A stretch of DNA of 64,000 nucleotides from a virus, in IMG/VR virus record IMGVR_UViG_3300045988_128165; one strand, 5' to 3'. Shown here piece by piece: positions 7,502-47,955 of this stretch. The translations under genes were made by a program, and so were the position numbers. The notes under the pieces are model-generated. The model was not told the DNA's origin. It worked only from the letters and a program-made list of their open reading frames with translations, and did not search any database. Position 1 is the first letter of the stretch, and each line of letters opens with the position of its first letter.

Positions 7502-7505
7502 TATT

Positions 7506-7530
7506 AAGGGGCTTGCATAAAGCCCCTTTA
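7506..7530 (+). terminator. hairpin AAGGGGCTT-loop-AAGCCCCTT
   Basis: 9-bp perfect stem, weak T tract. Confidence 0.5.
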
Positions 7531-7551
7531 AATTAGAAAGGAGAAAATAAA

Positions 7552-17083: not shown

Positions 17084-18094
17084 ATGGAAGAATTAAAAGA
17101 AATGAATTCTTCCGTTGATGGGCTACAAGATACAATATATACGGAAGTAAAAGATCCATATGGATTCATTTATATCACAACGAATTTGATTGATGGCAAA
17201 AGATATTTAGGCCAAAGAAAATTCTATGGAAATTGGCAAGAATATCTTGGTAGTGGTGCAGCATTTAAACAAGCAATTGACAAATATGGAAAAGAAAATT
17301 TTGTAAGAAATGTAATTGATATTGCTTATTCTGCAGAAGAATTAAATGAAAAGGAATATAATTATAGTGTTTTCTTTAATGCGGTTGAATCTAACAATTG
17401 GTATAATCTTGTTTATGGTGGAGGAACAACGCAAGGATGGACTCCAAGTAAAGAAACAAGAAAAAAGATATCAAAAGCTGCAAAAGAAAGACTTTCAGAT
17501 CCAAATAATCATCCAATGTATAGAAGAGTAGGATTAGTAGGCGAGAATAATCCCCAGTTTAAAGTTTCTCCAAAAGAACGCATGGATGAAGAAACATATA
17601 AACAATGGTATGAAAAACATAAATTATATTGGGCAAATCCAACAACTAAAGGCAAACATATATGGATAGGAAAACAACATCCCAGTTTAGGTAAAAAATT
17701 GTCAGATGAACAAAAATTGAATCTATCAGAAAAAGCAAAAGAAAGATTTATAAATTCAAGCAATCATCCAATGTACGGAAAACATCACACAGAAGAAGCA
17801 AAGCAAAAGATGAGTGATTCTCGTAAAGGGAGTAATTGGTGGAAGTGTAGAAGAATATATTGTATAGAATTAAATCAAATTTTTTGGGGAGCAAAAGAAG
17901 TACAAAATTTATATGGATTTGATCCAAGCTCTATTACAAAGTGCTGTAGAGGCAAACAAAATTATACACATAAACATCCACAAACAGGCGAGGTATTGCA
18001 TTGGTTGTATGCGGAAGATGCAATCAAAAAAGGATATATCACACAAGAAGAGTTAGATGGATATATAAATAGTTTAAAAGGTAAAGGAGACTGA
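17084..18094 (+). CDS. GIY-YIG homing endonuclease with NUMOD3-like repeats
   Basis: GFIYITTN...YLGQ core; repeated HPMY/NPxF-K motifs. Confidence 0.8.
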   Translation: MEELKEMNSSVDGLQDTIYTEVKDPYGFIYITTNLIDGKRYLGQRKFYGNWQEYLGSGAAFKQAIDKYGKENFVRNVIDIAYSAEELNEKEYNYSVFFNAVESNNWYNLVYGGGTTQGWTPSKETRKKISKAAKERLSDPNNHPMYRRVGLVGENNPQFKVSPKERMDEETYKQWYEKHKLYWANPTTKGKHIWIGKQHPSLGKKLSDEQKLNLSEKAKERFINSSNHPMYGKHHTEEAKQKMSDSRKGSNWWKCRRIYCIELNQIFWGAKEVQNLYGFDPSSITKCCRGKQNYTHKHPQTGEVLHWLYAEDAIKKGYITQEELDGYINSLKGKGD

Positions 18095-25660: not shown

Positions 25661-25749
25661 GGCGGAGTATCCGAATGGCACAGGAAATTGACTTAAAATC
25701 AATCGGCAATTAAGTTTGCTTGCGAGTTCAAATCTCGTCTCCGCTACCA
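25661..25749 (+). tRNA. tRNA-Leu(UAA), type II
   Basis: acceptor GGCGGAG/CTCCGCT, loop CTTAAAA, long variable arm, T-loop TTCAAAT, encoded CCA. Confidence 0.8.
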
Positions 25750-25830
25750 ACTCGCTAACGTTTCTTTTGTATTTCTTTCATTCAGAGTACAACGAAGACA
25801 AGAAATATAGATAAAATGGTTTTATAATAT

Positions 25831-25906
25831 GTCCAAGTAACTCAGCGCATAGAGTATGCGGCTACGAACCACAAAGTCGGGAGTTGGGATCTCCCCTTGG
25901 ATGCCA
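25831..25906 (+). tRNA. tRNA-Arg(ACG) with non-canonical T-loop
   Basis: acceptor GTCCAAG/CTTGGAT, loop CTACGAA, T-loop TTGGGAT, CCA. Confidence 0.65.
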
Positions 25907-25940
25907 ACACATTAATGAATAACACTATTTATCAATTGAG

Positions 25941-26711
25941 ATGATGCCAAATATGTATAGAAGAGAAAAGATTAAAGGGTATGAGCGCTATGAAGTTGAT
26001 ACTAATGGCGTTGTATATAGTCAAAAAGGAAATCCTTTAAAATTTCACGTCAACCATAATGGATATTGTATGGTATGTCTGTGCACGAATGGAGAAATAA
26101 AAGGATTTGGAATACATCAGCTTGTAGCAAGACAATTTATTGAGAATGATGATCCTTTGAATAAAACGCAAGTTAATCATAAAGATGGCAATAAACAGAA
26201 CAATCATGTTGAAAATTTAGAATGGGCAACAGCAAAAGAGAATATGCGCCATTCTGTTGATATCCTCGGCAATTATTTAGAAGACAAAAATGCCAATGCT
26301 CGTACTATTTACGGAGTTGATATAAAAACCCATGAGGTTAAATATAGATTCACAAGTTTGATTGGCGCAGCTAGGTTTTTTGCTGATGATAAAAATAAAG
26401 AAAGACATATACAAGCAACGTTATGGAGAGTCTTAAATCATTATGAAGCGTCACGTTCATATAGAAGTTGTTTATGGTTTTATGAAGACGAATGCCCTTA
26501 TGAAATAAATGATGTAGTTAATTTGTCAGATAACTATATCCCAGATCGTGGGTTCAGAAAACTTTCAGACGATGATGTTAAATGGATTCGCACACATTAT
26601 ATTCCATACGATAATGAGTTTGGAACACGAGGAGTTGCTAGAAGATTTCACATAGATAATAGCACAGTATCAGATATTGTAAATTATAAAACATATACAG
26701 ATATATGCTAA
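25941..26711 (+). CDS. HNH homing endonuclease (NUMOD4 + HNH_3 type)
   Basis: YERYEVDTNGVVYS; NHKDGNKQNNHVENLEW. Confidence 0.85.
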   Translation: MMPNMYRREKIKGYERYEVDTNGVVYSQKGNPLKFHVNHNGYCMVCLCTNGEIKGFGIHQLVARQFIENDDPLNKTQVNHKDGNKQNNHVENLEWATAKENMRHSVDILGNYLEDKNANARTIYGVDIKTHEVKYRFTSLIGAARFFADDKNKERHIQATLWRVLNHYEASRSYRSCLWFYEDECPYEINDVVNLSDNYIPDRGFRKLSDDDVKWIRTHYIPYDNEFGTRGVARRFHIDNSTVSDIVNYKTYTDIC

Positions 26712-26751
26712 CACCATTGACCTTGGCAAGTCATTAAACTACCATCTATAT

Positions 26752-26836
26752 GGGGGTATGGCGTAACTAGCAACCGCGCAAGTCTCAAAAACTTGTGGAG
26801 AAATCCGTCCGGGCGCACATCCCGGTACCCCTACCA
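26752..26836 (+). tRNA. tRNA-Leu(CAA), type II, non-canonical T-loop
   Basis: acceptor GGGGGTA/TACCCCT, loop CTCAAAA, T-arm CCGGG-CGCACAT-CCCGG, CCA. Confidence 0.7.
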
Positions 26837-26839
26837 CAT

Positions 26840-26932
26840 CCTCCTTTAGTGTAATGGTAGCACGGCGCACGCAAGGCGCTAGAGCGGTTCAACTCCGTAA
26901 TGTGTTAGAGCGGTTCAATTCCGCAAGGAGGT
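26840..26932 (+). tRNA. tRNA-Cys(GCA)-like with a 26-nt tandem duplication of the T-arm
   Basis: acceptor CCTCCTT/AAGGAGG; TAGAGCGGTTCAACTCCG then TAGAGCGGTTCAATTCCG. Confidence 0.5.
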
Positions 26933-27116
26933 CGTCTGGCACGGACGAAGTGCGCTGTGGTCATACAGTAAAATGACAAAGCTCATGGCCGATATGGATG
27001 GCGACAAATATGAGCGAGGCAGAACAATTAAATCTTGGGTCTGCAAGTAAGCCTGTCGGCAACAGAGGAGAGCCTTATGCTTGCTAGGTGTTCTAGATGC
27101 CTTTCTCCTCATAAAT

Positions 27117-27215
27117 GGGAACTTGGTCAAGTAGCTAAGACACTGGCGGGGACAGAATAGTGCAAACATTAAGAGCACACTGCCGGAGACACGAGTTCGA
27201 ATCTCGTAGTTCCCA
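27117..27215 (+). tRNA. 99-nt tRNA-like gene with no normal anticodon arm
   Basis: acceptor GGGAACT/AGTTCCC, type II D-arm, canonical T-arm ACGAG-TTCGAAT-CTCGT; centre is a 7-bp stem around 30 nt. Confidence 0.45.
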
Positions 27216-27224
27216 ACTTAATAT

Positions 27225-27309
27225 GGGTCAGTAGCGAATCGGCAAACGCAGCAGACTGTAAATCTGCCTCCTTCGGGAATAGGTGGATCGACACCACCCT
27301 GACCCACCA
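27225..27309 (+). tRNA. tRNA-Tyr(GUA), type II
   Basis: acceptor GGGTCAG/CTGACCC, loop CTGTAAA, T-loop ATCGACA, CCA. Confidence 0.8.
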
Positions 27310-27558
27310 AATGGTAGTAAGTAGTGCAAATTTTATATCAGATAACCAGTAAGGATAAAAGCCGTTGCAGGATTTGCTCCCTGTATCGAGAAAGATTAAA
27401 TTTGAACTCGCTGAAAGTAGCTGGTGAATGGGTATAAAATGGAGTCATGCACGGCTCCGCTTGCTATCATTACCAAGGGATAAGTTGCTTAAACTGTTCG
27501 AACGAACCCTACAAATCGGCAGAAACGGTGACAGCTCGGAAAGACGGCAAATTAATAT

Positions 27559-27710
27559 GCTCCGCTAGCTCAATTGGTCAGAGCACCCGACTTCGCTGCA
27601 TGGTGTAATAGCAACACTGCTTAACCGCGGATTAAGAGATGTAAGGGCAGGACTTACTGCAGCGGCCAATAATCGGGAGGTTCCAAGTTCGATGCTTGGG
27701 CGGAGCACCA
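27559..27710 (+). tRNA. tRNA-Ile(UAU) interrupted in the anticodon loop by a 75-nt tRNA-like insert
   Basis: halves 27559-27593 and 27669-27710 give a canonical 77-nt cloverleaf with loop CTT|ATAA and CCA. Confidence 0.75.
27594..27668 (+). tRNA. nested tRNA-like unit (nominal anticodon GCG) with encoded CCA
   Basis: acceptor CGCTGCA/TGCAGCG, D GTGT/ACAC, anticodon arm CTTAA-CCGCGGA-TTAAG, T-arm GTAAG-GGCAGGA-CTTAC. Confidence 0.65.
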
Positions 27711-27715
27711 AATAT

Positions 27716-27786
27716 TATCGTATAGCTTAATGGGAAAGCGCCCTCACTATCAGAGGGAGATACTTGTTCGATTCAAGTTGCGTTAG
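27716..27786 (+). tRNA. tRNA-like gene with atypical anticodon loop ACTATCA
   Basis: weak acceptor TATCGTA/TGCGTTA, D GCTT/AAGC, stem CCCTC/GAGGG, canonical T-arm; C at positions 33 and 37. Confidence 0.45.
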
Positions 27787-27864
27787 AAAAATGTGGTTGC
27801 TATGCACGTCGCGCGTCGCCACCAAACAAAGCATAGTTGGCGCTGTGGAAAGACACAGAGATCT

Positions 27865-27949
27865 GCAGGAGTCCCATAGTGGTCGATTGGAGCGGTTTTG
27901 TAAGCCGCCAGCTTTGCTCACGTCGGTTCGAATCCGACCTCCTGCTCCA
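27865..27949 (+). tRNA. type II tRNA body with loop TTTGTAA (nominal UGU)
   Basis: acceptor GCAGGAG/CTCCTGC, 3-bp D-stem, 13-nt variable arm, T-arm GTCGG-TTCGAAT-CCGAC, CCA. Confidence 0.6.
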
Positions 27950-27957
27950 CATTATAT

Positions 27958-28073
27958 GCAAGTAAGGAAGAATTGGTCTTCTCTCATTTAACAAAGCTGA
28001 GATACAAAAAGATCGCTACTTTGGAAACGTTCGCTTTGGGGAAATGTGTGTTCGAATCACACTACTTGCTCCA
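27958..28073 (+). tRNA. 116-nt tRNA-like gene with about 40 extra central nt
   Basis: acceptor GCAAGTA/TACTTGC, D GAAG/CTTC, T-arm GTGTG-TTCGAAT-CACAC, CCA; centre does not fold as a standard arm. Confidence 0.45.
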
Positions 28074-28197
28074 GCGAGGTAACGTCACTTCCATCACGTA
28101 GCACAGCGGATAGCAAATAGTAAAAGAGATATGTGCACCTAGGCTCTTGTTTGAACTATTTGGTTATGATAAAGAAGGATTGGAATCCTCGCTTTAT

Positions 28198-28287
28198 GAG
28201 AGCGTAACTCAGTTGGTAGAGTTTTATAGCGTGAAGGGATATGCTATTGAATGCCCTTAGTCGCCAGTTCGAATCTGGCCGCTCTCA
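28198..28287 (+). tRNA. 90-nt tRNA-like gene with expanded anticodon region
   Basis: acceptor GAGAGCG/CGCTCTC, D ACTC-AGTTGGTA-GAGT, T-arm GCCAG-TTCGAAT-CTGGC; interleaved stems ATAGC/GCTAT and AAGGG/CCCTT. Confidence 0.45.
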
Positions 28288-28314
28288 TTAAAATATATAT
28301 TAGGAGAAATAGTT

Positions 28315-28554
28315 ATGGCAATTAAAATAATTAATAAAGGAAAAGATCTTGATAATCCTATATTTACACAGCGATGCCCTAATTGCGATTGCGTTTTTAC
28401 CTATCAGAATGAAGATGCTTATAGAAAGCCTACTGGTAGATATTATAGAGACTTTGACATTTGTTTTATGGACGATTACAAACAAGAAATTACAGTATCT
28501 ATTGAATGTCCTTGGTGCCACAAAAAAATTCATGTAAAAGACGAATATATATAA
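28315..28554 (+). CDS. zinc-ribbon protein
   Basis: ORF track; CPNCDC...CPWCH; AGGAG RBS. Confidence 0.55.
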   Translation: MAIKIINKGKDLDNPIFTQRCPNCDCVFTYQNEDAYRKPTGRYYRDFDICFMDDYKQEITVSIECPWCHKKIHVKDEYI

Positions 28555-28577
28555 CTCGAATCCTTCTTGTCGCGCCA
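28555..28577 (+). pseudogene. isolated 3' third of a tRNA (T-loop to CCA)
   Basis: CTCGAAT-CCTTC-TTGTCGC-G-CCA begins at the base after the stop codon; no 5' partner nearby. Confidence 0.55.
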
Positions 28578-28635
28578 GATTAAAAATTGTTAAGAGTGTG
28601 GTTCTCTTTGTGCAATGATATAATGGAGGAATAAG

Positions 28636-28839
28636 ATGAAAATTGAAAACAAGGTTTTTCTATGTTCTAATTATGCAACCCCAGTGCTAGAAGAGGCACT
28701 TGATGCATTTTCTAACGAAGGTTATAAATTGGTTTCTACCCAGATGGCAAAGAATCTCTATGGGGTCGAAGTAATGTATTTGTTTTTTACGAGGAAAGTA
28801 AAAAATAAAAAGCGAAAATCAGACTCGCAAGGAACGTGA
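28636..28839 (+). CDS. 67-aa protein, paralog of 22008..22175
   Basis: ORF track; GGAGG RBS. Confidence 0.55.
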   Translation: MKIENKVFLCSNYATPVLEEALDAFSNEGYKLVSTQMAKNLYGVEVMYLFFTRKVKNKKRKSDSQGT

Positions 28840-28846
28840 TATTAAT

Positions 28847-29014
28847 ATGCGACCATTTATGGAAAATATCTGTATGCATCCTCATTGCATGAATCCAATG
28901 TGTGAAGAATGTAGTTTCTTTACTCCCAGAGTTTTCGGTATTAGAGTGCCTAAGAGCTTGGGGTTGGCACTTTTTAAACTGGAAGGATTACTTAACACGA
29001 TGATTCGTTTTTAA
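28847..29014 (+). CDS. 55-aa Cys-rich ORF
   Basis: open frame filling a gap; weak RBS. Confidence 0.35.
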   Translation: MRPFMENICMHPHCMNPMCEECSFFTPRVFGIRVPKSLGLALFKLEGLLNTMIRF

Positions 29015-29021
29015 CTAGTAT

Positions 29022-29096
29022 GGGTCTGTAATTCAATAGTAGAATATACGCCTTTTAAGCGTACTACGGACGGAGCGTAACCGCCCAGACCCACCA
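29022..29096 (+). tRNA. tRNA-Lys(UUU) with non-canonical T-loop
   Basis: acceptor GGGTCTG/CAGACCC, loop CTTTTAA, T-loop AGCGTAA, CCA. Confidence 0.75.
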
Positions 29097-29192
29097 TTTA
29101 TTCTCTGTAATTTAGTCCACTTGACTCCGGTATAATCTTCTGCTCTGTTACCTGTTTGTGCAGGTTAGATGAATAAAGACAGAGTTATTTAT

Positions 29193-29268
29193 GGCTGGCG
29201 GGAGGTTGGCATCTCAACTTGGCTCATAATCAAGCTCAATTCAGTTCGATTCTGAAGCTCAGCAACCA
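29193..29268 (+). tRNA. tRNA-Met/Ile2(CAU)-like with imperfect acceptor stem
   Basis: arm CTTGG-CTCATAA-TCAAG, T-arm TTCAG-TTCGATT-CTGAA; only 5 of 7 acceptor pairs. Confidence 0.45.
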
Positions 29269-29271
29269 AAT

Positions 29272-29345
29272 AGCGGATTAGTGTAATAGTAGCACGACAG
29301 ACTTTGAATCTGTAGGTAGGGGAGCATAGCCTCTATCCGCTGCCA
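29272..29345 (+). tRNA. tRNA-Gln(UUG) with non-canonical T-loop
   Basis: acceptor AGCGGAT/ATCCGCT, loop CTTTGAA, T-loop AGCATAG, CCA. Confidence 0.75.
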
Positions 29346-29376
29346 TGTAAATATTAATTTTTAGGAGGAATATATT

Positions 29377-29484
29377 ATGAACACAAGGACTGCACTACAT
29401 TATGAGAATCGTATTGCGAAGCTAAAGGCCAAGAGTGAAGTTGTAAATGCAAACCTGATCAACAAAGCACAGAGGGAGCTTAAT
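29377..29484 (+). CDS. 35-aa ORF
   Basis: ATG behind AGGAGG, between two tRNAs. Confidence 0.35.
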
Positions 29485-29509
29485 AAGCTGACACAGAAGT
29501 AAGAATATG

Positions 29510-29584
29510 CGGTAGTAGCTCAATGGTAGAGCATCAGATTTCCAATCTGATTGTTGCGAGATCGTGCCTCGTCTACCGCTCCAT
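29510..29584 (+). tRNA. tRNA-Gly(UCC) with non-canonical T-loop
   Basis: acceptor GCGGTAG/CTACCGC, loop TTTCCAA, T-loop ATCGTGC, CCA. Confidence 0.75.
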
Positions 29585-30950: not shown

Positions 30951-31115
30951 ATGGATGAGCTAAAACCCTGTCCTTTTTGTGGGAATGCGCCCAATATGCG
31001 AATTACTGGATATGGAGCAGTATATGTGAGATGTCCTAACTGCGGAGTTGAAACACCTTATTATCAGAATGTTGAACTCGCAACACTTAAATGGAATATG
31101 AGAATTGAGTGTTGA
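30951..31115 (+). CDS. Lar-like restriction-alleviation protein
   Basis: MDELKPCPFCG...RCPNCG zinc ribbon; ORF track 30771 trimmed. Confidence 0.55.
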   Translation: MDELKPCPFCGNAPNMRITGYGAVYVRCPNCGVETPYYQNVELATLKWNMRIEC

Positions 31116-31140
31116 CAATACGAAATTATAGTGTTACAAT
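31112..31140 (+). promoter_or_regulatory. sigma-A-type promoter with motif in the spacer
   Basis: TTGACA, ATACGAAATTATAGTGT, TACAAT. Confidence 0.7.
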
Positions 31141-31175
31141 TGCTTATGATAAAACAAGTAAGGAGTTGTAACACT

Positions 31176-31337
31176 ATGAAAATGAAAAAATACATAATTA
31201 TATACAAGGATAGAGGAAAACACAAATGGGCTGAATCAGACAGCTTAGAGATACTACAAAGCATTTTTAGTAAATGTAGTTGGATTAAAGAATACAAAAT
31301 TATTGACACATCAAATTTTAAGGAGGCAATGGATTAA
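31176..31337 (+). CDS. 53-aa protein
   Basis: ATG behind TAAGGAG; contains motif copy 31291-31303. Confidence 0.5.
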   Translation: MKMKKYIIIYKDRGKHKWAESDSLEILQSIFSKCSWIKEYKIIDTSNFKEAMD

Positions 31338-31339
31338 AA

Positions 31340-31558
31340 ATGGATTACAATAATCTAGATAGACAGTCCTATGAAAAGGGCTATAACGATGGTAAGCAAG
31401 ATGCAGCATATGAGATTATCACTAAGATGAGATATCTTAATTATAATATTATTGGCTCACTTGGATATGAAAATGTAGAAGATTATCCTGATTATTTGAT
31501 GGTGTTTCTTGACGGCATTGCAAAAGAATATGATGTAGAAGAAGACGAGGTGCATTAA
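31340..31558 (+). CDS. hypothetical acidic protein
   Basis: ORF track. Confidence 0.55.
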   Translation: MDYNNLDRQSYEKGYNDGKQDAAYEIITKMRYLNYNIIGSLGYENVEDYPDYLMVFLDGIAKEYDVEEDEVH

Positions 31559-31560
31559 TT

Positions 31561-32664
31561 ATGATTTACCTAGATAACGCTGCTACATCTCCAATTTGTG
31601 AAGCCGCAAAGAATATTATCCTTGACAATCTTGACGAATATTACAATCCAAACAGTTCATATGAGGATGCTCGTGGAGTAAAGATTAAGGTCGAGGAAGC
31701 ACGTGAAAAGATTGCGGCACTAATTGGAGCACAACCTGACGAGATTTACTTTACTTCTGGTGGATCTGAAGCAAATTCATGGGTTTCAAATCATGATTTT
31801 ACACTAGCATCTAACATTGAGCATCATTCTATTGATCCAGACTATAAATTCAAGGTCGATTATAGAGGAATGGTTGATATAGAGAAATTTGAAAAAAGAG
31901 TAAATGAATTGCAGAATAATTATTTCGGTATTAGTCCGGGTATTGCTTCATGTATGATGGTAAATAATGAACTTGGAGTTATTGAGCCAATTGAAGAACT
32001 AGCAAAGATTGCTCATGATAATCATATGTTGTTCCATACAGATGCAGTTCAGGCATTCCCTCATATGAAAATTAATGTAGAAGAGCTTGGCGTAGATATG
32101 TTGTCATGCTCTGCTCATAAGTTTGGTGGGATTAAAGGATGCGGATTCCTTTATATCAAAGATGGAATTCATATTCATCCTTTAATTAATGGTGGAAGCC
32201 AAGAAAGAGGAATCAGAGGTGGCACAACTAATGTCCTTGGTGTCTTGGCTATGGCTGCTGCGCTAGAAGATACGACAACCCATATGAATGGAAATAATGC
32301 AAAAATTGCACGTTTATCCAATAAGATTAAAGATAATTTATTGAATGTAAAAGGTGTCACAATTAATGGGGCAACAGATAAAAAGCAGCATTTAGACAGT
32401 ATTTTGAACTTTAGAATTGATGGTGTACATGGTTCAGATGTTGTTGCGATGGCTGACGAATTTGGGATTGCTATTAGTGCTGGTTCAGCTTGCAATGAAG
32501 GTGATGCCATTCCATCTCATGTGCTAAAAGCAATTGGTTTGTCTGACGAAGAGGCACTAAGTAGCATTCGTGTATCTCTTGGAAGATATAATACAGAAGA
32601 AGAAATTGATTATGCTTGTGTGATTCTTCCAAAGGTCATTGAAAGATTGAGATCACTTAATTGA
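31561..32664 (+). CDS. cysteine desulfurase (NifS/IscS-like, class V PLP enzyme)
   Basis: SAHKFGG (PLP lysine) and SAGSACN (active-site Cys loop). Confidence 0.8.
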   Translation: MIYLDNAATSPICEAAKNIILDNLDEYYNPNSSYEDARGVKIKVEEAREKIAALIGAQPDEIYFTSGGSEANSWVSNHDFTLASNIEHHSIDPDYKFKVDYRGMVDIEKFEKRVNELQNNYFGISPGIASCMMVNNELGVIEPIEELAKIAHDNHMLFHTDAVQAFPHMKINVEELGVDMLSCSAHKFGGIKGCGFLYIKDGIHIHPLINGGSQERGIRGGTTNVLGVLAMAAALEDTTTHMNGNNAKIARLSNKIKDNLLNVKGVTINGATDKKQHLDSILNFRIDGVHGSDVVAMADEFGIAISAGSACNEGDAIPSHVLKAIGLSDEEALSSIRVSLGRYNTEEEIDYACVILPKVIERLRSLN

Positions 32665-32666
32665 TA

Positions 32667-32678
32667 GTACAAAATTAT
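32667..32678 (+). repeat. motif copy GTACAAAATTAT
   Basis: 16 nt upstream of ATG 32695. Confidence 0.75.
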
Positions 32679-32694
32679 AGAAAGGATTTAATAA

Positions 32695-33858
32695 ATGATT
32701 ATCAATAATAAAAGAGCGCTTGCATACATCCAGCATGTAACCAACATTCGTCCTATTGATGGTGCAGATAATATTGAACAGTGTAATGTACTTGGATGGA
32801 ATCTCATTTGTAAGAAGGGTGAATTCCATGAAGGCGATCCTTGTGTTTATATTGAGATTGACTCAAAAGTCCCTGAGAGAGAGGAATTTGAATTCCTTCG
32901 TGCAAAAGGCTTTAAGGTCAAGACAATGAAGCTTGGTAAGTTTAATTGTATCAGTCAGGGCCTTGCCATGCCACAGTCTGCATTTAAAGAGTTGGTAGGG
33001 CTTTCAGAGGGGACTGATGTAACCGATATTCTTGGAATTAAGTATTCCGTACAAGAGGATAATGCTCGTAAGAGCAATGGCGATCCTAATGCAAAATATA
33101 AATCTATGGCCGCTCGTCACCAGAAAATCTTTAAAAAGAAGTGGGCACGTTGGATGATGCGTCGTTCTTGGGGGCGTAAGGTTATGTTTTTCTTCTTCGG
33201 CAAGAAGAAAGATAACCCTCGTGGTTTTCCTTCATTTGTTTCAAAGACAGACGAAGAGCGTGTAGAAAATCAGCCTTGGCGTATTAGTGATGGCAAGACT
33301 TATATCGCTACAGAAAAGCTAGATGGCACTTCTTGTACTTATGCACTTGAACGAACAGGTCGTAATAAGTTTGAGTTTTATGTTTGTTCTCGTAATGTAA
33401 GACAGCAGGACGAGAAACAAGAGTGTTATCATGACCATAACATCTATTGGGATTTGGCGTTTAAGTACAATATCGAACAGCATTTGAAGGATATCCTAAA
33501 TCAATTTCCTAAGCTTAAATGGGTATGCATTCAAGGCGAGGGCGTAGGTTCTGTTCAGGGCAATCCTCTGAAGCTCAAGGAAGATGATTTATATGTTTTT
33601 AATTTTAAAGATTCTGAAAGGGGAAGATATAATTCTATCATTGGTAGAGCGATTATTGAAAAGATGGGCATGAAATGGGTTCCCATTCTTGGAAAAGTTC
33701 AAATGCCAGACACTATGGAGGAACTTAAGGCGCTTGCAACTGGCAAGTCCAAGGTGAATCCAGATGTAATGCGTGAAGGTATTGTGTACCGTTCTTTGGA
33801 TGGTAGTGATAGTTTCAAAAATGTCAGCCGCGAGTATTTGCTAAAACATAATAATTAA
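32695..33858 (+). CDS. ATP-dependent RNA ligase (N-terminal OB-like domain + KxDG nucleotidyltransferase; DraRnl/Rnl5-like)
   Basis: ATEKLDGTS motif I; N-terminus IRPIDGADNIE...GW..ICKKGEF..GD. Confidence 0.6.
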   Translation: MIINNKRALAYIQHVTNIRPIDGADNIEQCNVLGWNLICKKGEFHEGDPCVYIEIDSKVPEREEFEFLRAKGFKVKTMKLGKFNCISQGLAMPQSAFKELVGLSEGTDVTDILGIKYSVQEDNARKSNGDPNAKYKSMAARHQKIFKKKWARWMMRRSWGRKVMFFFFGKKKDNPRGFPSFVSKTDEERVENQPWRISDGKTYIATEKLDGTSCTYALERTGRNKFEFYVCSRNVRQQDEKQECYHDHNIYWDLAFKYNIEQHLKDILNQFPKLKWVCIQGEGVGSVQGNPLKLKEDDLYVFNFKDSERGRYNSIIGRAIIEKMGMKWVPILGKVQMPDTMEELKALATGKSKVNPDVMREGIVYRSLDGSDSFKNVSREYLLKHNN

Positions 33859-33877
33859 AGGAGAATGAGATGAAAGA

Positions 33878-34717
33878 ATGAACTATCATTCAGATAAATA
33901 CATAATGGACGGTGTTCGAGAGCATTATAACGAAGCTCTCGAATACTTTCCAGAGGATAGAATTGTGGGCATCTTCTATCAAGGTAGTGGCAATTATGGA
34001 CTTGATTATGAGGGTTCTGACGTTGATACAAAGTTGATTGTAACTCCAACTCTTGATGATATAATTTTCACTCACAAACCTGTAAGCACCACTCATATTA
34101 GAAATAACGATGAGCATACTGATTGGAAAGACATCAGACTTATGCTTCAAACATTCAGAAAATGTAATTTGAATTTTACAGAAATTCTTTTTACTAAATA
34201 CAAAATTGTTAATTCTCTATATATGAAACAGTGGGATAGAGTCGTTGATAACAACGAACTTATTGCGAGATATAATGAAGTTGCAGCAGTAAGGACAATG
34301 AAGGGCATTGCTATGGAAAAATATCATGCAATGGAACATAAATATCCTTCTAAAATTGAGATTATTGATAAATATGGATTTGATGGGAAGCAAGTTCATC
34401 ACTTATTTAGGGTAGAAGAATATTTACAAAGATATATTAATGGCGAATCTTATGCAGACTGTTTAATTTCAAAGCAAGCAGAATATCTTAAAAATGTTAA
34501 GACTTGTGGTTATCTTTCTCTCGAAGAAGCAAGAGTTTTAGCAAAAGAGTCTTTAAACAGAATATGTATAATGGCTGACAAGTTCCGCGCAGAGCATATA
34601 GAAGAATCTAATCCAAATGTTGATAATCTTTTAGACGATGTTCAACGAGAAATTATGCTAATCGCTATTAAGAGAGAAATTAACGATTATAGGATACAAA
34701 ACAATGTAAATTTATAA
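33878..34717 (+). CDS. Pol-beta-superfamily nucleotidyltransferase
   Basis: GSGNYGLDYEGSDVD signature (GS...DxD). Confidence 0.6.
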   Translation: MNYHSDKYIMDGVREHYNEALEYFPEDRIVGIFYQGSGNYGLDYEGSDVDTKLIVTPTLDDIIFTHKPVSTTHIRNNDEHTDWKDIRLMLQTFRKCNLNFTEILFTKYKIVNSLYMKQWDRVVDNNELIARYNEVAAVRTMKGIAMEKYHAMEHKYPSKIEIIDKYGFDGKQVHHLFRVEEYLQRYINGESYADCLISKQAEYLKNVKTCGYLSLEEARVLAKESLNRICIMADKFRAEHIEESNPNVDNLLDDVQREIMLIAIKREINDYRIQNNVNL

Positions 34718-34777
34718 TAAGGAGGGCTAATAAATAATGTAAAAGATACAATAAAATTCAATTATTTACAAAAAAAT

Positions 34778-35440
34778 ATGGGTTATATTTATAAAATTAC
34801 TAATAATATCAATAACAAATGTTATATTGGGAAAACAGAAAGAACTATTCAAGTCAGATGGTCAGAACATATCCGTTCAAGTAAATGTAAGCCAGATTTA
34901 CCATTATATCGAGCGTTCTTAAAATATGGCATAGATAATTTTTCAATTGAAGAAATAGAAGAATGTGATAATGCTATTTTAGATGAACGAGAAATTTATT
35001 GGATTGATTATTTTAATGCCTACAGAGAAGGATATAATTGCACGGCTGGTGGAGAAGGTGGAATAAAAACATATGAAGAAAATATTGATATTATTATTGA
35101 ACGCTATCAACAAGGAGAAAGGTTAGATCGTTTATGTAAAGAATATCATTATGATTACGCATGTATTAGACCTAAACTTGAAGCAAAAGGTCTCATTATT
35201 AATACAACGGCTGGGCCAGAAAAATTAAGCAAGAAAATATATGCAGTAGACCCAATTACATTACAAGTTGTTGCAGAATATGAATCTATTTCTGCCGCTG
35301 GTAGAGCTTTATGTAAAGATAGTAAAAATCCTAGAGCAATAGCAAACCATATTGTTAAACAAAAAGATACTGAACATGTATCTCATGGATTTTTATGGCG
35401 TACCACTGAAACTATACGAGATTATGAAGATTGCAATTAA
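34778..35440 (+). CDS. GIY-YIG homing endonuclease
   Basis: GYIYKITN...CYIGKT...R..EH...N. Confidence 0.85.
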   Translation: MGYIYKITNNINNKCYIGKTERTIQVRWSEHIRSSKCKPDLPLYRAFLKYGIDNFSIEEIEECDNAILDEREIYWIDYFNAYREGYNCTAGGEGGIKTYEENIDIIIERYQQGERLDRLCKEYHYDYACIRPKLEAKGLIINTTAGPEKLSKKIYAVDPITLQVVAEYESISAAGRALCKDSKNPRAIANHIVKQKDTEHVSHGFLWRTTETIRDYEDCN

Positions 35441-35459
35441 GAAAGAGATTAGTGATTAA

Positions 35460-35864
35460 ATGATCAACCTTCGTCAAGATTTAATTCAAAAAGAACTTTA
35501 TGGGACGTGCCAAGATGAGCTTACATATCGGAAATTAAAGCCTAGCAACAGCTTTATTAATAAACTTTTCAATCATTACTATGTTGTTGAGCACACGGAA
35601 CACTTTTATGATTCTGTGTCGCACGGGATTGAGTTTAATAACTGGATAGAAGTTTATTCTAATGGTGTTTTTGGCATGTCGCAGAAAGATGTTGATAAAA
35701 TTAGTAGGGAACATCTTAAGAATATCAAAAGATGTGGCGTTAGTTATAATGGTAGACTTTATATTGCAGAAAAAGAAGATTCAATTTTCATTTACTACTA
35801 TGGAAGAGATTTTGCGCTAGTAGATTATTTGTGGATTTTTAAGAGGAAAGAAAGAGATCGGTGA
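35460..35864 (+). CDS. hypothetical protein
   Basis: ORF track. Confidence 0.55.
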   Translation: MINLRQDLIQKELYGTCQDELTYRKLKPSNSFINKLFNHYYVVEHTEHFYDSVSHGIEFNNWIEVYSNGVFGMSQKDVDKISREHLKNIKRCGVSYNGRLYIAEKEDSIFIYYYGRDFALVDYLWIFKRKERDR

Positions 35865-35868
35865 TGAA

Positions 35869-36786
35869 ATGACTAAATTCTTTATGATGATTGGTTTGGC
35901 TGGCAGCGGCAAGAGTGAACAGGCCAAGAAACTTGCAGCAAAATATGATGCAGAAATTTTTTCTAGTGACTCACTTCGAGAGGAAATGTTCGGAGATGTG
36001 AACCATCAGACGGATAATGATGTTTTGTTTAAAGAGCTCCACAAGCGTATTAGAGGATGCCTGACTTATGGAAAGAGCGCCATTTATGATGCTTGTAATA
36101 TTAGCTATAAGCGTCGCATGGAGTTTCTTAAGTCTCTCAATAAAATCCCTTGTGAGAAGATTGCAGTTCTTATGGCAACGCCTTATGAAGTTTGTCTTGA
36201 ACGCAATTCACAGCGTGAGCGGGAAGTGCCAGAGCATGTAATTAAACGTATGTATATGAACTTTAACGTACCTTTTTGGTACGAAGGTTGGGATGATATT
36301 GATGTTGTTTATTCTGAAGATGCGATGGACTATAAAGGATGGGATAGAGATTGGATCGAATCAGTGAAAGATTTTAACCAAGACAATTCTCATCATGCCT
36401 TATCTCTTGGAGACCATTGTTGGAATGCTGTAAAATATATTGATAGTAACACACCATCTTTGCATTCAACGTCCACTGAACTTAGACATGCAGCAATGCT
36501 ACATGACGAGGGAAAAATCTTTACGAAAAGCTTTTATGATGCAAGAGGGAATCCTTCAGAAGATGCGCATTATTATTCCCATGAGCGTTGTGGGGCATAC
36601 AATAGCTTATTCTACGAAATGCCCTGCGAACATCTTTATGTAGCACAGCTTATTCAGTGGCATATGCGACCTTATCTCGCATGGGAGCAATCTGACAAAG
36701 CTATGCAGAAAGATAGGAAACTTCTTGGTGAACCTTTATTTAACGATATTTGTCTATTGCATGCTGCCGATGTGTCAGCGCATTGA
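35869..36786 (+). CDS. P-loop polynucleotide-kinase-like domain fused to an HD phosphohydrolase domain
   Basis: GLAGSGKS Walker A; C-terminal H...LHDEGK...H. Confidence 0.6.
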   Translation: MTKFFMMIGLAGSGKSEQAKKLAAKYDAEIFSSDSLREEMFGDVNHQTDNDVLFKELHKRIRGCLTYGKSAIYDACNISYKRRMEFLKSLNKIPCEKIAVLMATPYEVCLERNSQREREVPEHVIKRMYMNFNVPFWYEGWDDIDVVYSEDAMDYKGWDRDWIESVKDFNQDNSHHALSLGDHCWNAVKYIDSNTPSLHSTSTELRHAAMLHDEGKIFTKSFYDARGNPSEDAHYYSHERCGAYNSLFYEMPCEHLYVAQLIQWHMRPYLAWEQSDKAMQKDRKLLGEPLFNDICLLHAADVSAH

Positions 36787-36806: not shown

Positions 36807-36835
36807 TTGACAATACAAAATTATTGACATATAAT
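36807..36835 (+). promoter_or_regulatory. consensus sigma-A promoter with motif in the spacer
   Basis: TTGACA, ATACAAAATTATTGACA, TATAAT. Confidence 0.8.
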
Positions 36836-38567: not shown

Positions 38568-39350
38568 ATGATGACAGACAAAATTAAGATTGCAGTATTT
38601 AAAAAGCTACTAGACGAATTTGAAACAGATGAAATGCGTTTATATTGTGAAGATATGATTAAGCAAATTCCTGATTACATCTTTGAAATGCCTAGTAGTA
38701 CGACAGGGAAATATCATAATAAAACGCAATGTCTCCCTCATGGGCAAATTTATCACATTATTATGTTTGGAGCAATTCTTAATTATAGACTTAGTTTAAA
38801 GTGCAATCAAGAAAAATTTAAGTTTCCAGAACAAAGAGACGCTATGAGATGCGTTCCAATTTTCCATGATGCGTTAAAGTGCGGTTGGGATGGTGGCGCT
38901 TATACAGTTCATGAGCATCCTATTCTCGCGGCAGAATGGGTCAAAACGGCAAAAGTAGAACATGATATTAGTAAGAAAATTAAAGAAGCTATTGCAGATA
39001 TGTGTGCTGCACACAGTGGGCAATGGACAACATCAAATAAGAGTAAAACAGTTCTTCCAGAGCCAAGCAATGCCATGGAGGTTGTAATTCATGAATGTGA
39101 TTATCTAAGTAGTCGTGTGGATATTGATATGGCTATTCCTAAATATTTGAATGATATTTTTGTTGATGAACCAGTAAAGTTTGATCCAGATTATGTCCTA
39201 TCTTTTGGAAAGTATTCTGGAAGAAAACTTGTAGACGTATATAAAAAGCATCCAGATTATGTGGATTGGATGGAAGAAAATATTTATCGAAAAGATGTGC
39301 TAAATCAAATTAAAGTAATGAAGGAGAACCTAAAGAAAAATGAAGATTGA
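38568..39350 (+). CDS. HD-superfamily hydrolase with FGKYSGRKL C-terminal module
   Basis: YH...IFHDALK...H pattern. Confidence 0.45.
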   Translation: MMTDKIKIAVFKKLLDEFETDEMRLYCEDMIKQIPDYIFEMPSSTTGKYHNKTQCLPHGQIYHIIMFGAILNYRLSLKCNQEKFKFPEQRDAMRCVPIFHDALKCGWDGGAYTVHEHPILAAEWVKTAKVEHDISKKIKEAIADMCAAHSGQWTTSNKSKTVLPEPSNAMEVVIHECDYLSSRVDIDMAIPKYLNDIFVDEPVKFDPDYVLSFGKYSGRKLVDVYKKHPDYVDWMEENIYRKDVLNQIKVMKENLKKNED

Positions 39351-44076: not shown

Positions 44077-44916
44077 ATGGACAAGACTACACTTGGTGAT
44101 AGAATGAAAAACAACTACGAGAATATTAGCAGATATTATCTAACTCGTAGAATGCCAATAATTACCCGCATTGACGGGAAGAGCTTCCACACTTTTACAA
44201 AGGGTTTTAAAAAGCCCTTTGATGACATCCTTATAAAGACTATGCAGGAAACTATGAAGTATCTCTGTGAGAACATTCAGGGCTGTGTCCTTGGCTATAC
44301 TCAGAGTGATGAGATTTCTCTAGTCCTTGTTGACTATGCAGAGCTTACTACAGATGCTTGGTTTGGAAACAATCTACAGAAGATGTGTAGCGTTTCTGCA
44401 AGCATGGCTACTCTCGCGTTTAATAAAGCTTTTACTCGTAATATTTCAAAACAATCTAAACGACTTTATACAGAACACCTTGAGGAAAAAGATGCTTCTT
44501 ATATTGAAACTCTTGAAATTGCAATGAACAAAGGTGCAATGTTTGATTCTCGAGTCTTTACAATTCCAAAGGAAGAGGTTTGCAATTATATGCTATGGCG
44601 GCAACAAGACGCTACTCGCAATTCCATCCTGTCTGTAGGTCAGGCCAACTTTAGTCATAAGGATCTTCATGGCAAGTCTTGCAACAACATTCAGGACATG
44701 CTTATGACCCAGAAGGGCATTAATTGGAACGATTATGCTACAACTTTAAAGCGTGGTAGTTGCTGCATTAAGGTTGATGATGGTCTTGCCCAGTACGATG
44801 AAGCAGGAAATATTTGTGGTTATACACAGAGAAGCCAGTGGATAATTGATAATGAAATTCCTATCTTCTCACAGGATAGAAATTATATTGAACGACTTAT
44901 TAATGTAGGAGGTTAA
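44077..44916 (+). CDS. Thg1-like protein (tRNA-His guanylyltransferase family, 3'-5' polymerase)
   Basis: LGDRMKNNYE...RIDGKSFHTFTKGF.KPFD...YTQSDEISLVL. Confidence 0.7.
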   Translation: MDKTTLGDRMKNNYENISRYYLTRRMPIITRIDGKSFHTFTKGFKKPFDDILIKTMQETMKYLCENIQGCVLGYTQSDEISLVLVDYAELTTDAWFGNNLQKMCSVSASMATLAFNKAFTRNISKQSKRLYTEHLEEKDASYIETLEIAMNKGAMFDSRVFTIPKEEVCNYMLWRQQDATRNSILSVGQANFSHKDLHGKSCNNIQDMLMTQKGINWNDYATTLKRGSCCIKVDDGLAQYDEAGNICGYTQRSQWIIDNEIPIFSQDRNYIERLINVGG

Positions 44917-47718: not shown

Positions 47719-47955
47719 ATGGAATCAGTATGCAGAAATTGTGATTTAGAATTAAAGCGCTCAGAATGTACTGACAAAGAACATACTGAATGTGAATGTC
47801 GCAAATGGATGATTAAAGAAATTAATCAAACTACTTTATTAGGTTTGATGTATCTTTTAGATGAAGTTCTTGAAACAGTTTCTAAGAACAAAAATGATTT
47901 ACGAAACAATAAAGCTAGAATGATCGAATTTCTGAGTAGAGGGATGATTGAGTGA
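47719..47955 (+). CDS. hypothetical protein
   Basis: ORF track; AGGAG RBS. Confidence 0.55.
   Translation: MESVCRNCDLELKRSECTDKEHTECECRKWMIKEINQTTLLGLMYLLDEVLETVSKNKNDLRNNKARMIEFLSRGMIE

Follow-up and report, generated by a model that had tools for sequence, protein, structure and literature searches.

A probable phage operon for healing, rebuilding and sealing broken RNA, with an Rnl5-type ligase, an RlaP-family nucleotidyltransferase and a kinase-HD protein

The window analysed here, the whole 64,000-nt stretch of the IMG/VR virus record IMGVR_UViG_3300045988_128165, probably contains at positions 32695-36786 a phage operon that heals, rebuilds and seals broken RNA, the likeliest substrates being tRNAs that defence or toxin ribonucleases of the host have cut. 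The reading is well supported at the level of sequence, as homology, synteny and published family biochemistry agree. The source phage is uncultured, measures ~155 kb and belongs to gut-type anaerobes; the host type of its lineage is anaerobic Bacillota. In an ORF check of the window all five ORFs of the cassette were found on the + strand, i.e. a predicted Rnl5-type ATP-dependent RNA ligase (387 aa, 32695..33858), a putative RlaP-family (RNA ligase-associating Pol-beta) nucleotidyltransferase (279 aa, 33878..34717), a free-standing GIY-YIG homing endonuclease gene (220 aa, 34778..35440), a 134-aa ORF with function unassigned (35460..35864), and a predicted bifunctional end-healing enzyme, kinase-HD (305 aa, 35869..36786). 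The adjoining tRNA array, noticed already in the sequence-only reading, holds 10-11 genes at 25661-29583, 3 kb upstream of the cassette.

The ligase ORF comprised an N-terminal OB fold (Pfam PHA02142, 1.6e-25, aa 9-93) and a nucleotidyltransferase domain (Pfam RNA_ligase, 7.8e-18, aa 202-375) with the KxDG motif I at K208-L-D-G (nt 33316-33327) and further catalytic residues E282, E361 and K375, in agreement with the KxDG ligase with an OB-like domain that had been read from the letters alone. It matched phrog_968 "RNA ligase" (5.4e-64), the Naegleria ligase NgrRnl (PDB 5cot, E 5e-42) and TIGR02306 (1.6e-31, under the equivalog cut-off), and is predicted to be an Rnl5-type RNA ligase, DraRnl/NgrRnl-like as suggested earlier. 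DraRnl and NgrRnl (PMC5397189, PMC7261155) have the same order of OB and nucleotidyltransferase domains, and their mapped catalytic and ATP-contact residues (in NgrRnl R4, D53, T145, R149, K170, D172, E227, F248, E312 and K326) are all identical in the window ligase. Apart from its score below the NCBIfam cut-off, the window ligase differs from these in a 61-aa basic linker inserted between the two domains (aa 117-177, 18 K/R), and in its surrounding healing operon, which is mostly missing for the cellular, physiologically "uncharted" Rnl5 enzymes.

The second gene carried the Pol-beta signature G36-S37 ... D48-x-D50 ... D85, invariant among homologues, and matched phrog_388 "nucleotidyltransferase" (8.8e-13), which upholds the Pol-beta nucleotidyltransferase proposed at 33878. 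Against PF10127 the protein is too diverged to clear the Pfam threshold by itself (0.0082; 16.3 versus 23 bits), and the threshold was passed by its homologues LC76P1_00029 (28.3 bits; BLASTP 2e-28 to the window protein) and a Phass-1 protein (24.9 bits; 1.4e-30). In nr its cluster is named "RNA repair pathway protein", and the AF2 model (pLDDT 86) displayed a nucleotidyltransferase and a helical domain, kanamycin nucleotidyltransferase being nearest. As judged from homologues and conserved motifs the protein belongs to RlaP, and it is predicted to rebuild trimmed RNA 3' ends. Two Pseudomonas members of the family add 1-2 NMP to 3'-OH ends of RNA, not DNA, and the published enzymes prefer mimics of broken tRNA (PMC12776372).

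The kinase half of the last gene (AAA_33, 2.8e-23, aa 5-135) contained a P-loop (G9-S16), D34, R37, D74 and R116/R118, and the HD half H176, H183, H212-D213, K216, H238, H265 and D301, all of which were invariant. A match to the bacterial Pnkp family TIGR04075 (4.5e-16) was accompanied by a match of the kinase to the CthPnkp kinase domain in PDB (2.4e-14; 1.9e-18 by profile), and for the AF2 model (pLDDT 92.4) the top Foldseek matches were all polynucleotide kinases. The relatives found by profile and Foldseek were CthPnkp, PSTK, Trl1-type kinases and T4 Pnkp. For the HD half, the Pfam HD match of the window protein alone was weak (0.055; 14.2 versus threshold 22) and clear in its full-length homologues Tsamsa gp175 (1.5e-08) and LC76P1 (5.7e-08), so that the assignment rests on homologues and conserved motifs; the best match of its profile to a solved structure was in a class II tRNA nucleotidyltransferase, to the HD region (3wfp, 5e-08). 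The protein would accordingly combine, as first read, a polynucleotide 5'-kinase with an HD phosphohydrolase at the C-terminus, HD standing in the place of the T4 phosphatase. Its domain order is permuted with respect to phrog_6931.

A transesterifying host RNase would leave 2',3'-cyclic-phosphate and 5'-OH ends. From homology and conserved active sites, the HD half would free the 3'-OH by taking off the cyclic or 3' phosphate, and the kinase half would phosphorylate the 5'-OH; RlaP would rebuild a trimmed 3' end, as its two Pseudomonas relatives do, and the ligase, with every NgrRnl catalytic residue present, would adenylylate on K208 and seal the 3'-OH/5'-phosphate break. The logic likened at the outset to T4 Pnkp and Rnl1 (5' kinase, 2',3'-phosphoesterase, 3'-end rebuilder, ligase) is borne out by homology and family biochemistry. 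In T4 the chemistry is the same (5'-OH kinase, removal of cyclic phosphate, ATP-dependent sealing), the kinase fold is common (Foldseek E ~4e-05), and the RlaP member is NrdC.11 (PMC12776372). The window differs from T4 in its HD phosphatase domain, in an Rnl5 ligase with N-terminal OB instead of Rnl1, and in having the repair genes in one operon. T4 Rnl1 seals PrrC-cut tRNA-Lys (PMC6097658, PMC12776372), whereas the characterised Rnl5 ligases seal duplex nicks having an RNA 3'-OH strand (PMC5397189, PMC7261155), with a requirement of at least two 3' ribonucleotides (PMC5397189), and sealing of anticodon-loop breaks by them is not reported in this cited literature. The classic PrrC-type lesion may therefore not be a substrate, and the ligase would be better suited to a break within a tRNA stem.

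Neighbours within 6 kb were counted around kinase-HD homologues (44-98% identity) at 80 IMG/VR loci. An RNA ligase was found in 71 of the 80 and an RlaP homologue in 60, both nearly always upstream on the same strand, which indicates linkage beyond chance; in loci of bacterial genomes (Bacillota contigs) the corresponding counts were 28/53 and 19/53. Where synteny is conserved inside one phage lineage, shared descent rather than shared function may account for part of it. Lysinibacillus phage LC76P1 has the same three genes contiguous and in unchanged order.

The GIY-YIG gene (PF01541, 5e-10; phrog_314 "homing endonuclease", 3e-30) was present in only 8 of the 80 loci. The 134-aa ORF, for which Pfam, PHROG and NCBIfam searches returned no matches, was present in 14, with or without the GIY-YIG gene. 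In L013, L014 and L035 both were absent and RlaP overlapped kinase-HD directly; since nothing lies between the two genes in these relatives, the GIY-YIG gene, rightly called "inserted" in the sequence-only reading, and the small ORF are independent insertions. The insertion at the RlaP/kinase-HD junction left both genes undamaged, the GIY-YIG gene is not part of the repair chemistry, and the ancestral unit would be a tight ligase-RlaP-kinase-HD operon. Directly 3' of the kinase-HD stop codon is a perfect sigma-70 consensus (TTGACA-17-TATAAT, 36807..36835, + strand), and judged by this consensus match the next transcription unit (primase) probably begins here, in which case the cassette would be bounded there. 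A second match (11/12) was at 31112-31140, upstream of the desulfurase block, and no convincing terminator was found inside 31140-36786.

The desulfurase in question, a putative NifS/IscS-type cysteine desulfurase (31561..32664, + strand; PF00266, 8e-64; TIGR03402 NifS, 2.3e-94, below cut-off), is directly upstream of the ligase with a 30-nt gap. The same position was occupied in 24 of the 80 viral loci, including the distant L087, L089 and L090, and likewise in L121-L123, and the enzyme is a recurrent neighbour and possibly an accessory to the cassette. A Thg1-like tRNA 3'-5' nucleotidyltransferase (279 aa, 44077..44916, + strand; PF04446, 3.6e-31; phrog_4717 "tRNA-His guanylyltransferase", 7.7e-93) is 7 kb downstream of the cassette in the window; in L011 it separates ligase from RlaP, and in L044-L048 it follows directly on kinase-HD. 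It is probably a companion of the cassette, repairing tRNA 5' ends. The ligase slot itself alternated between Rnl5-type, a divergent ~450-aa OB-ligase and Rnl1-like, even between near-identical phages, and in Tsamsa-group Bacillus phages the gene of a T4 Rnl1-type ligase overlaps the kinase-HD start. Such an exchangeable slot plausibly matches different break geometries from different host nucleases. For a tRNA or RNA context speak Thg1 in or beside the cassette, the tRNA nucleotidyltransferase match of the HD half, the relatives of the kinase named above, the action of published RlaP enzymes on RNA, the upstream tRNA array, and the Rnl1-type ligase filling the slot in Tsamsa-group and other relatives.

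The location in a replication module with helicases, primase (36864), RecJ (39874) and DNA polymerase points in another direction, as do the only in-vivo phenotypes of Deinococcus Rnl5 and HD-Pnk, which concern DNA repair and resistance to radiation (PMC5397189, PMC6300522). The cassette could be an accessory of replication or of DNA or RNA-DNA junction repair, in which kinase-HD heals 5'-OH/3'-phosphate DNA breaks and the ligase seals "ribo-patch" nicks with ribonucleotides at the 3' end, supplied by RlaP or another polymerase, as proposed for Deinococcus. The two-ribonucleotide requirement of Rnl5 would suit this, without DraRnl, Deinococcus is more sensitive to radiation and slower to reassemble its genome (PMC5397189), and the HD-Pnk proteins of Runella and Deinococcus heal both DNA and RNA ends, DR_B0098 being required for radiation resistance (PMC6097658, PMC6300522). 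We nevertheless regard this as unlikely. DNA 3' ends are not a substrate of the characterised RlaP enzymes (PMC12776372), and with a full-length NAD-dependent DNA ligase of its own the phage has DNA sealing provided for. Thg1, which acts on tRNA, is found within the cassette in relatives, a T4 Rnl1-type ligase fills the ligase slot in relatives, and for the HD half a tRNA nucleotidyltransferase is the closest match.

If RNA is the substrate, it could also be other than tRNA, e.g. rRNA or phage mRNA cut by host toxins such as MazF, colicin E3 or Cas13-type, or a phage transcript under maturation. In total E. coli RNA, species of both rRNA and tRNA size are labelled by RlaP (PMC12776372), the duplex-nick preference of Rnl5 would suit breaks in rRNA helices (PMC7261155), and nothing in the sequence specifies the substrate. 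The neighbours Thg1 and tRNA array and the Rnl1-type alternates favour tRNA, circumstantially, and make this option rather improbable.

Very improbable is a role in protein-dependent splicing of the ~77-nt insert in the tRNA gene at 27559-27710, for which the cassette would be the heal-and-seal part by analogy with fungal and plant Trl1. The interrupted gene itself is real and maintained (16 copies, exon parts invariant), IMG/VR yielded no uninterrupted allele, and the basal helix of the insert has two compensatory G-C to A-U changes. Group I introns are much longer than the insert, and it matched no Rfam ribozyme or intron family. The Trl1-type enzyme set is likewise kinase, cyclic-phosphoesterase and ligase (PMC6379707). 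However, sister phages that have no split gene (L004, L008, L009) carry the cassette unchanged, and it occurs also in distant phages and bacteria, so it is not maintained for that gene, and its ligase type does not track the gene. No canonical bulge-helix-bulge was present in the insert, and the scan of neighbouring genes gave no homologue of a splicing endonuclease. The cassette can thus no longer be called the "obvious candidate" to rejoin this tRNA.

The earlier emphasis on a distinct architecture holds for the HD domain and the DraRnl-like ligase but not as a novelty in kind, since Runella and Deinococcus have characterised HD-Pnk enzymes encoded beside ligases (PMC6097658, PMC6300522) and RlaP sets are known. 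The HD-Pnk of Runella slithyformis and Deinococcus radiodurans likewise joins an HD 2',3'-phosphoesterase and a P-loop 5'-OH kinase in one polypeptide, with its gene adjoining an ATP-dependent ligase gene (overlapping in relatives). The domain order is reversed, with the window kinase N-terminal and HD C-terminal; the cassette has RlaP and lacks Tpt1 and MTase-HIT; the Deinococcus enzymes have DNA-repair phenotypes; and the window partner is a predicted Rnl5-type ligase with intact active site, whereas ligation by the Runella partner could not be demonstrated (PMC6097658). The kinase domain of Clostridium thermocellum Pnkp (Pnkp/Hen1) is the closest solved relative of the window kinase (30% identity, target-normalised TM 0.74), yet a calcineurin-type phosphoesterase and a fused Rnl4 ligase domain like those of that system are absent here, and the scanned neighbours included no methyltransferase of the Hen1 kind.

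The name for RlaP-centred RNA repair operons goes back to Burroughs & Aravind 2016 (cited in PMC12776372 and PMC7824862), and a catalogue from jumbo phages contains sets of RlaP, ligase and kinase/phosphatase, the phosphatase being of HD type in some (PMC7824862). The window shares their components and operon logic (RlaP by an ATP-dependent RNA ligase, a 5' kinase and a 3' phosphoesterase), in a phage below the jumbo class; the characterised RlaPs belong to Pseudomonas RtcB-RtcA operons (PMC12776372), and that of the window is paired with an Rnl5-type ligase and the kinase-HD fusion. This type of system is thus already described in phages, and the find is well supported and fairly ordinary. 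Sets of ligase, RlaP, kinase and phosphatase in phages are read as counter-defence RNA repair (PMC7824862), and the same proposed role against tRNA-cutting nucleases would apply to the window cassette.

The five + strand ORFs that the sequence-only reading had assembled into an RNA end-healing and sealing set were recovered at exactly the coordinates it had assigned, and several lines of evidence (homology, predicted structures, gene order kept in relatives, and the literature) converge in support of the assignment itself. The set comprises an Rnl5-type RNA ligase (32695-33858, 387 aa), a Pol-beta nucleotidyltransferase that probably belongs to the RlaP (RNA ligase-associating) family (33878-34717, 279 aa) and a kinase-HD protein (35869-36786, 305 aa), with a GIY-YIG homing endonuclease gene (34778-35440) and a 134-aa ORF (35460-35864) between the latter two. 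We infer every catalytic step of the cassette from homology.

In the ligase, an N-terminal OB fold (Pfam PHA02142, aa 9-93, E-value 1.6e-25) is followed by a C-terminal nucleotidyltransferase domain (Pfam RNA_ligase, aa 202-375, 7.8e-18), which is the domain order of Rnl5 and the reverse of that in DNA ligases, and the protein falls in phrog_968 'RNA ligase' (5.4e-64). Its best solved relative in PDB was NgrRnl of Naegleria gruberi (5cot, E-value 5e-42, aligned in two segments), the structural exemplar of the Rnl5 family, of which Deinococcus DraRnl is the founder (PMC7261155, PMC5397189). The 5cot alignment was mapped onto the active-site residues of NgrRnl as defined by Unciuleac et al., and identical residues were found for R4 (R7 in the window ligase), D53 (D56), T145 (T185), R149 (R189), K170 (K208, the motif I lysine nucleophile), D172 (D210) and F248 (F302), as well as for E227 (E282), E312 (E361) and K326 (K375), each of which is essential in NgrRnl. 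The architecture, these residues and the E-value bear out the earlier description of the ligase as DraRnl-like. On its TIGR02306 (RNA_lig_DRB0094) score of 109.4 bits, which is under the NCBIfam equivalog cut-off of 151.15, the protein classifies as a family-level relative and not as an equivalog by NCBI's rule. A basic, aromatic-rich linker of 61 aa with 18 K/R (aa 117-177; 33043-33225) separates the OB and nucleotidyltransferase domains, whereas NgrRnl has no counterpart of comparable length at the same position; the linker may be an added RNA-binding element. The retained catalytic residues, the score below cut-off and the 61-aa insert thus indicate a diverged Rnl5 member with an intact active site. 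Sealing by Rnl5 enzymes is Mn-dependent and acts on 3′-OH(RNA)/5′-PO4 nicks in duplexes (PMC5397189, PMC7261155). The protein is not taken to be the DNA ligase of the phage, which has a complete NAD-dependent enzyme for that function at 47952-49883.

The kinase-HD protein consists of a kinase half (aa 1-~150; AAA_33, 2.8e-23) and an HD half (aa ~170-305; HD, 0.055). The best PDB sequence match of the kinase half was the Pnkp kinase domain of Clostridium thermocellum (2.4e-14, or 1.9e-18 with the family profile); next in rank came PSTK, which is a tRNA kinase, T4 Pnk and Pnkp1. An AlphaFold model based on 19 homologues displayed two domains (pLDDT 92.4, pTM 0.90), and its leading Foldseek matches were polynucleotide or tRNA 5′-kinases, i.e. 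CthPnkp, fungal Trl1-type enzymes, PSTK, mammalian PNKP and T4 Pnkp, with gluconate and adenylate kinases lower in the list. As kinase matches filled the fold list of the full model, the HD half was examined with an HD-only sequence profile, for which the best solved relative was the HD-containing region of bacterial class II tRNA nucleotidyltransferase (3wfp-3wfs, 5e-08), with Cas3 HD domains far behind. The Pfam HD match is weak in the window protein but clear in the full-length relatives gp175 of Tsamsa (1.5e-08) and LC76P1_00030 (5.7e-08). Across phage families there is no variation in the kinase residues of the P-loop (G9-S16), D34, R37, D74 and R116/R118, and the HD residues H176, H183, H212-D213, K216, H238, H265 and D301 are invariant in three phage lineages. 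In agreement with the sequence-only reading, which had placed an HD domain where T4 has its phosphatase, the C-terminal half differs from that of T4 Pnkp, and T4 Pnkp aligned with the kinase half alone (residues 2-134).

On the basis of its sequence, the protein resembles the HD-Pnk enzymes of Runella and Deinococcus in apparently combining an HD phosphoesterase and a P-loop 5′-OH kinase with conserved active sites in one polypeptide; however, the characterised Runella enzyme has the order HD then Pnk (PMC6097658), and here the order is reversed, with the kinase N-terminal. Accordingly, the alignment to phrog_6931 is crossed (kinase half to profile positions 185-340, HD half to 55-102), which identifies the protein as a domain-order permutation of the HD-then-Pnk phage family. 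A literature search for a 'Pnk-HD' or 'kinase-HD' protein returned nothing relevant; HD-Pnk with its domains in this permuted order is as yet uncharacterised.

The RlaP gene starts 19 nt past the stop codon of the ligase gene, in one operon with it, and 60/80 related IMG/VR loci likewise have RlaP next to a ligase. Its product was assigned to phrog_388 (8.8e-13) and matched Pfam RlaP (PF10127) with 16.3 bits (E-value 0.0082), below the gathering threshold of 23, while its homologues LC76P1_00029 (28.3 bits; BLASTP against the window protein 2e-28) and that of phage Phass-1 (24.9 bits; 1.4e-30) both exceeded it. Some cluster relatives have a precomputed PF10127 match, and members of the cluster already bear the nr name 'RNA repair pathway protein'. 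The signature G36-S37, D48-x-D50 and D85 was invariant in sets of 6 and of 15 homologues. The AF2 model (pLDDT 86.3) combines an N-terminal nucleotidyltransferase with a C-terminal helical domain, the layout described for PfRlaP; the nearest folds were generic Pol-beta nucleotidyltransferases (kanamycin nucleotidyltransferase, HalB; TM ~0.43) among targets that did not include the PfRlaP structure, and a PDB search with the single sequence gave noise only. In a December 2025 preprint, two Pseudomonas RlaP enzymes attach 1-2 NMP to RNA 3′-OH ends and prefer a broken-tRNA mimic; DNA is not a substrate, and a tRNA missing a nucleotide regains part of its aminoacylation through them (PMC12776372). 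The RlaP homologue of Phass-1 (L003, OQ749652; 8007-8831), a gut phage using genetic code 15, adjoins a large tRNA array; ca. 8 kb on either side is annotated throughout as 'hypothetical protein', and by annotation alone none of these genes is a ligase or kinase-HD.

At the nucleotide level, the cassette had no megablast match among 50,697 phage records, and protein-level searches were therefore used. Features were scored within 6-kb flanks of 80 IMG/VR loci (44-98% kinase-HD identity) and of 53 bacterial-genome loci, the latter almost all from Clostridia/Bacillota. An RNA ligase of any type was present in 71/80 IMG/VR and 28/53 bacterial-genome loci, and RlaP in 60/80 and 19/53, respectively. 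These counts reject chance adjacency of the cassette genes, and the cluster is a unit. The arrangement is unchanged in the many public assemblies where the ~155-kb phage of the window recurs. In Lysinibacillus phage LC76P1, an OB-ligase, RlaP and kinase-HD are contiguous in the same order, all annotated as 'hypothetical', and in Tsamsa-group Bacillus phages a gene for a T4 Rnl1-type ligase overlaps the start of the kinase-HD gene.

The type of ligase varies within this unit. The Rnl5 type of the window was found in 25/80 IMG/VR and 2/53 bacterial-genome loci, a ~450-aa OB-ligase, the commonest ligase of the family, in 35/80 and 12/53, and an Rnl1-like ligase in 11/80 and 14/53. The OB-ligase is orthologous to LC76P1_00028 (44% identity), but aligns with the window ligase only locally (155 aa at 24% identity). 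It likewise has the OB-then-nucleotidyltransferase layout, with matches to phrog_968 and TIGR02306, and motif I of these ~450-500-aa proteins reads K-M-H-G. It occupies the slot corresponding to window 32695-33858 in, e.g., the related loci L007 (6628-8007), L013 (3846-5195), L010 (3030-4547) and L011 (1000-2391). Loci with flanking genes 95-99% identical to those of the window have either ligase type (L007, L015 and L021 versus L016 and L022), and RlaP alleles are similarly mosaic among near-identical phages. Rnl1-like ligases take the same slot in other relatives, and PF09511 (Rnl1 family) was found in the equivalent slot of Tsamsa. In comparison with the T4 Pnkp/Rnl1 repair system, the window ligase is of the Rnl5 type and not of the Rnl1 family. 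Different phage RNA ligases have been considered to specialise in different break types (PMC7824862), and the modular replacement of ligase and RlaP is consistent with such specialisation. The swap of the ligase slot between near-identical phages resembles an arms-race signature.

The GIY-YIG gene (PF01541, 5e-10) had been regarded as inserted, and its distribution agrees: it was present in 8/80 IMG/VR and 0/53 bacterial-genome loci, with the site empty in L013, L014 and L035. In L011 the same RlaP/kinase-HD junction is occupied by a GIY-YIG gene unrelated to that of the window. The 134-aa ORF, for which no family match was obtained, was present in 14/80 IMG/VR loci, and over these 80 loci the two genes occur independently of one another. 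In L013 and L014 (~70% identity), where neither is present, ligase, RlaP and kinase-HD genes are tightly packed, with RlaP and kinase-HD overlapping. Two further free-standing homing endonuclease genes were noted: the tRNA array contains one of HNH_3/NUMOD4 type (25941-26711, + strand), and another of GIY-YIG type (phrog_314; 17084-18094, + strand) is situated between replication genes; the phage genome is rich in mobile endonucleases.

Consensus promoter-like sites, which are pattern matches only, flank the block at 31112-31140 and 36807-36835, and no convincing internal terminator was found between them. Directly upstream of the ligase lies a gene for a NifS/IscS-type cysteine desulfurase (31561-32664, + strand), as in 24/80 viral loci, and this adjacency is kept in distant relatives at 35-38% desulfurase identity (L087, L089, L090, L121-L123), with 35-37% in contigs of Dysosmobacter and Hominicoprocola. 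The desulfurase could have a part in thiolating tRNAs anew, or could provide Fe-S for the system of the anaerobic ribonucleotide reductase (NrdD). A Thg1-like tRNA 3′-5′ nucleotidyltransferase is encoded at 44077-44916 (+ strand); within the scored flanks Thg1 was found in 13/80 IMG/VR and 1/53 bacterial-genome loci, and it is located between ligase and RlaP in L011 (2747-3568) and directly after kinase-HD in L044-L048 (~6930-7748). This placement suggests that the tools for tRNA end repair extend beyond the cassette. More speculatively, the cassette genes could form a single island for tRNA maintenance together with those for Thg1 and the desulfurase, the latter putting thiolation back on rebuilt tRNAs.

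The window represents the replication and nucleotide-metabolism arm of the phage, with DnaB-like and Dda-like helicases, primase, RecJ, dCMP deaminase, a Pol III-alpha-type DNA polymerase and anaerobic NrdD. The DNA polymerase is ~31-34% identical to that of the nearest cultured phages, so the lineage is uncultured, and several related records derive from human faecal samples. The host is probably a member of the Clostridia. A 260-aa protein (38568-39350, + strand; phrog_5889, function unassigned) has HD-like His/Asp motifs and a C-terminal ExoX-like domain, and its relatives give faint to weak Pfam HD matches; the protein is a candidate for a second phosphohydrolase in the vicinity of the cassette. 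A tyrosine-integrase-like gene (13177-14151, + strand; phrog_1, 1e-46) was identified in this ~155-kb phage, and some kinase-HD relatives reside in large chromosomal contigs of Clostridia (e.g. L112 and L115), which points to the possible existence of prophages or temperate relatives.

An interrupted tRNA-like gene at 27559-27710 (+ strand) carries a ~77-nt insert in the anticodon loop. The gene has an acceptor stem, both a D and a T arm, the anticodon stem CCCGA/UCGGG and ACCA; ARAGORN and Rfam both missed it, and the ambiguous junction allows Ile-UAU, Arg-UCU or Arg-UCG. It was also found in L005, L006, L007 and L095-L107, which include 13 further interrupted copies from IMG/VR, where the search gave no allele lacking the insert. 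Over 16 copies, representing 9 distinct sequences, the exon parts do not vary, and the 8-bp basal helix of the insert shows two compensatory G-C to A-U changes, recovered by RNAalifold. A decayed pseudogene was rejected on these grounds, and the invariant exons and covarying helix instead indicate a maintained structured RNA. At ~77 nt the insert seems much smaller than a group I intron could be, and Rfam gave no match at E ≤ 1 to such introns or to known ribozymes. In the surrounding array, tRNA-Phe(gaa) at 28197-28288 is 92 nt long and its anticodon region appears enlarged; tRNA-Thr(tgt) at 27865-27949 is 85 nt long with a long variable arm. A tRNA at 29022-29093 was called by Rfam and missed by ARAGORN, a tRNA-Met at 29194-29264 was called by ARAGORN and missed by Rfam, and 27125-27207 gave a weak tRNA-like Rfam match. 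The content of the array varies between sister phages.

The sequence-only reading had proposed the cassette as the obvious candidate to rejoin this split tRNA. On such a view it would double as the sealing arm of protein-dependent tRNA splicing in a bacterial virus. Some endonuclease would then excise the structured insert, and the two halves would be healed by kinase-HD, with or without RlaP, and joined by the ligase, a role likened to that of fungal Trl1. The proposal was not supported: the split tRNA occurs in some sister phages and is absent from others with an identical cassette, its presence is uncorrelated with the cassette or the ligase type, and neither a splicing endonuclease among the scanned neighbours nor a canonical bulge-helix-bulge in the insert was seen. 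We regard such splicing as very improbable.

The chief rival to RNA repair is a DNA 'ribo-patch' function, as proposed in Deinococcus (PMC5397189, PMC6300522), the source of the founding Rnl5 ligase. Against it, characterised RlaP enzymes are specific for RNA, a DNA ligase is already encoded by the phage, relatives have Thg1 embedded in the cassette, and Rnl1-type ligases alternate in the ligase slot. The main weakness of RNA end healing and sealing as the function is that characterised Rnl5 needs a nicked duplex with an RNA 3′-OH strand (PMC5397189, PMC7261155), so that the classic anticodon-loop break may not be a substrate. A cut inside a tRNA stem would fit Rnl5 better, and tRNases cutting the anticodon arm have now been reported (e.g. 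OLD; PMC12445682).

Systems of ligase, RlaP and kinase/phosphatase, HD-Pnk enzymes and Rnl5 ligases are already described, and what varies here is the domain order of kinase-HD, the exchange of ligases in one slot, and the presence of desulfurase and Thg1 as neighbours. The cassette hence extends, and does not change, the current picture of phage RNA repair. It offers a genetic context for testing the physiological role of Rnl5, which has been described as 'uncharted', and the ligase slot is a natural experiment on which ligase handles which RNA break. If RNA end healing and sealing is the true function, an abundant family of large gut-type phages would carry a modular counter-measure to host defences that cut tRNA or other RNA.
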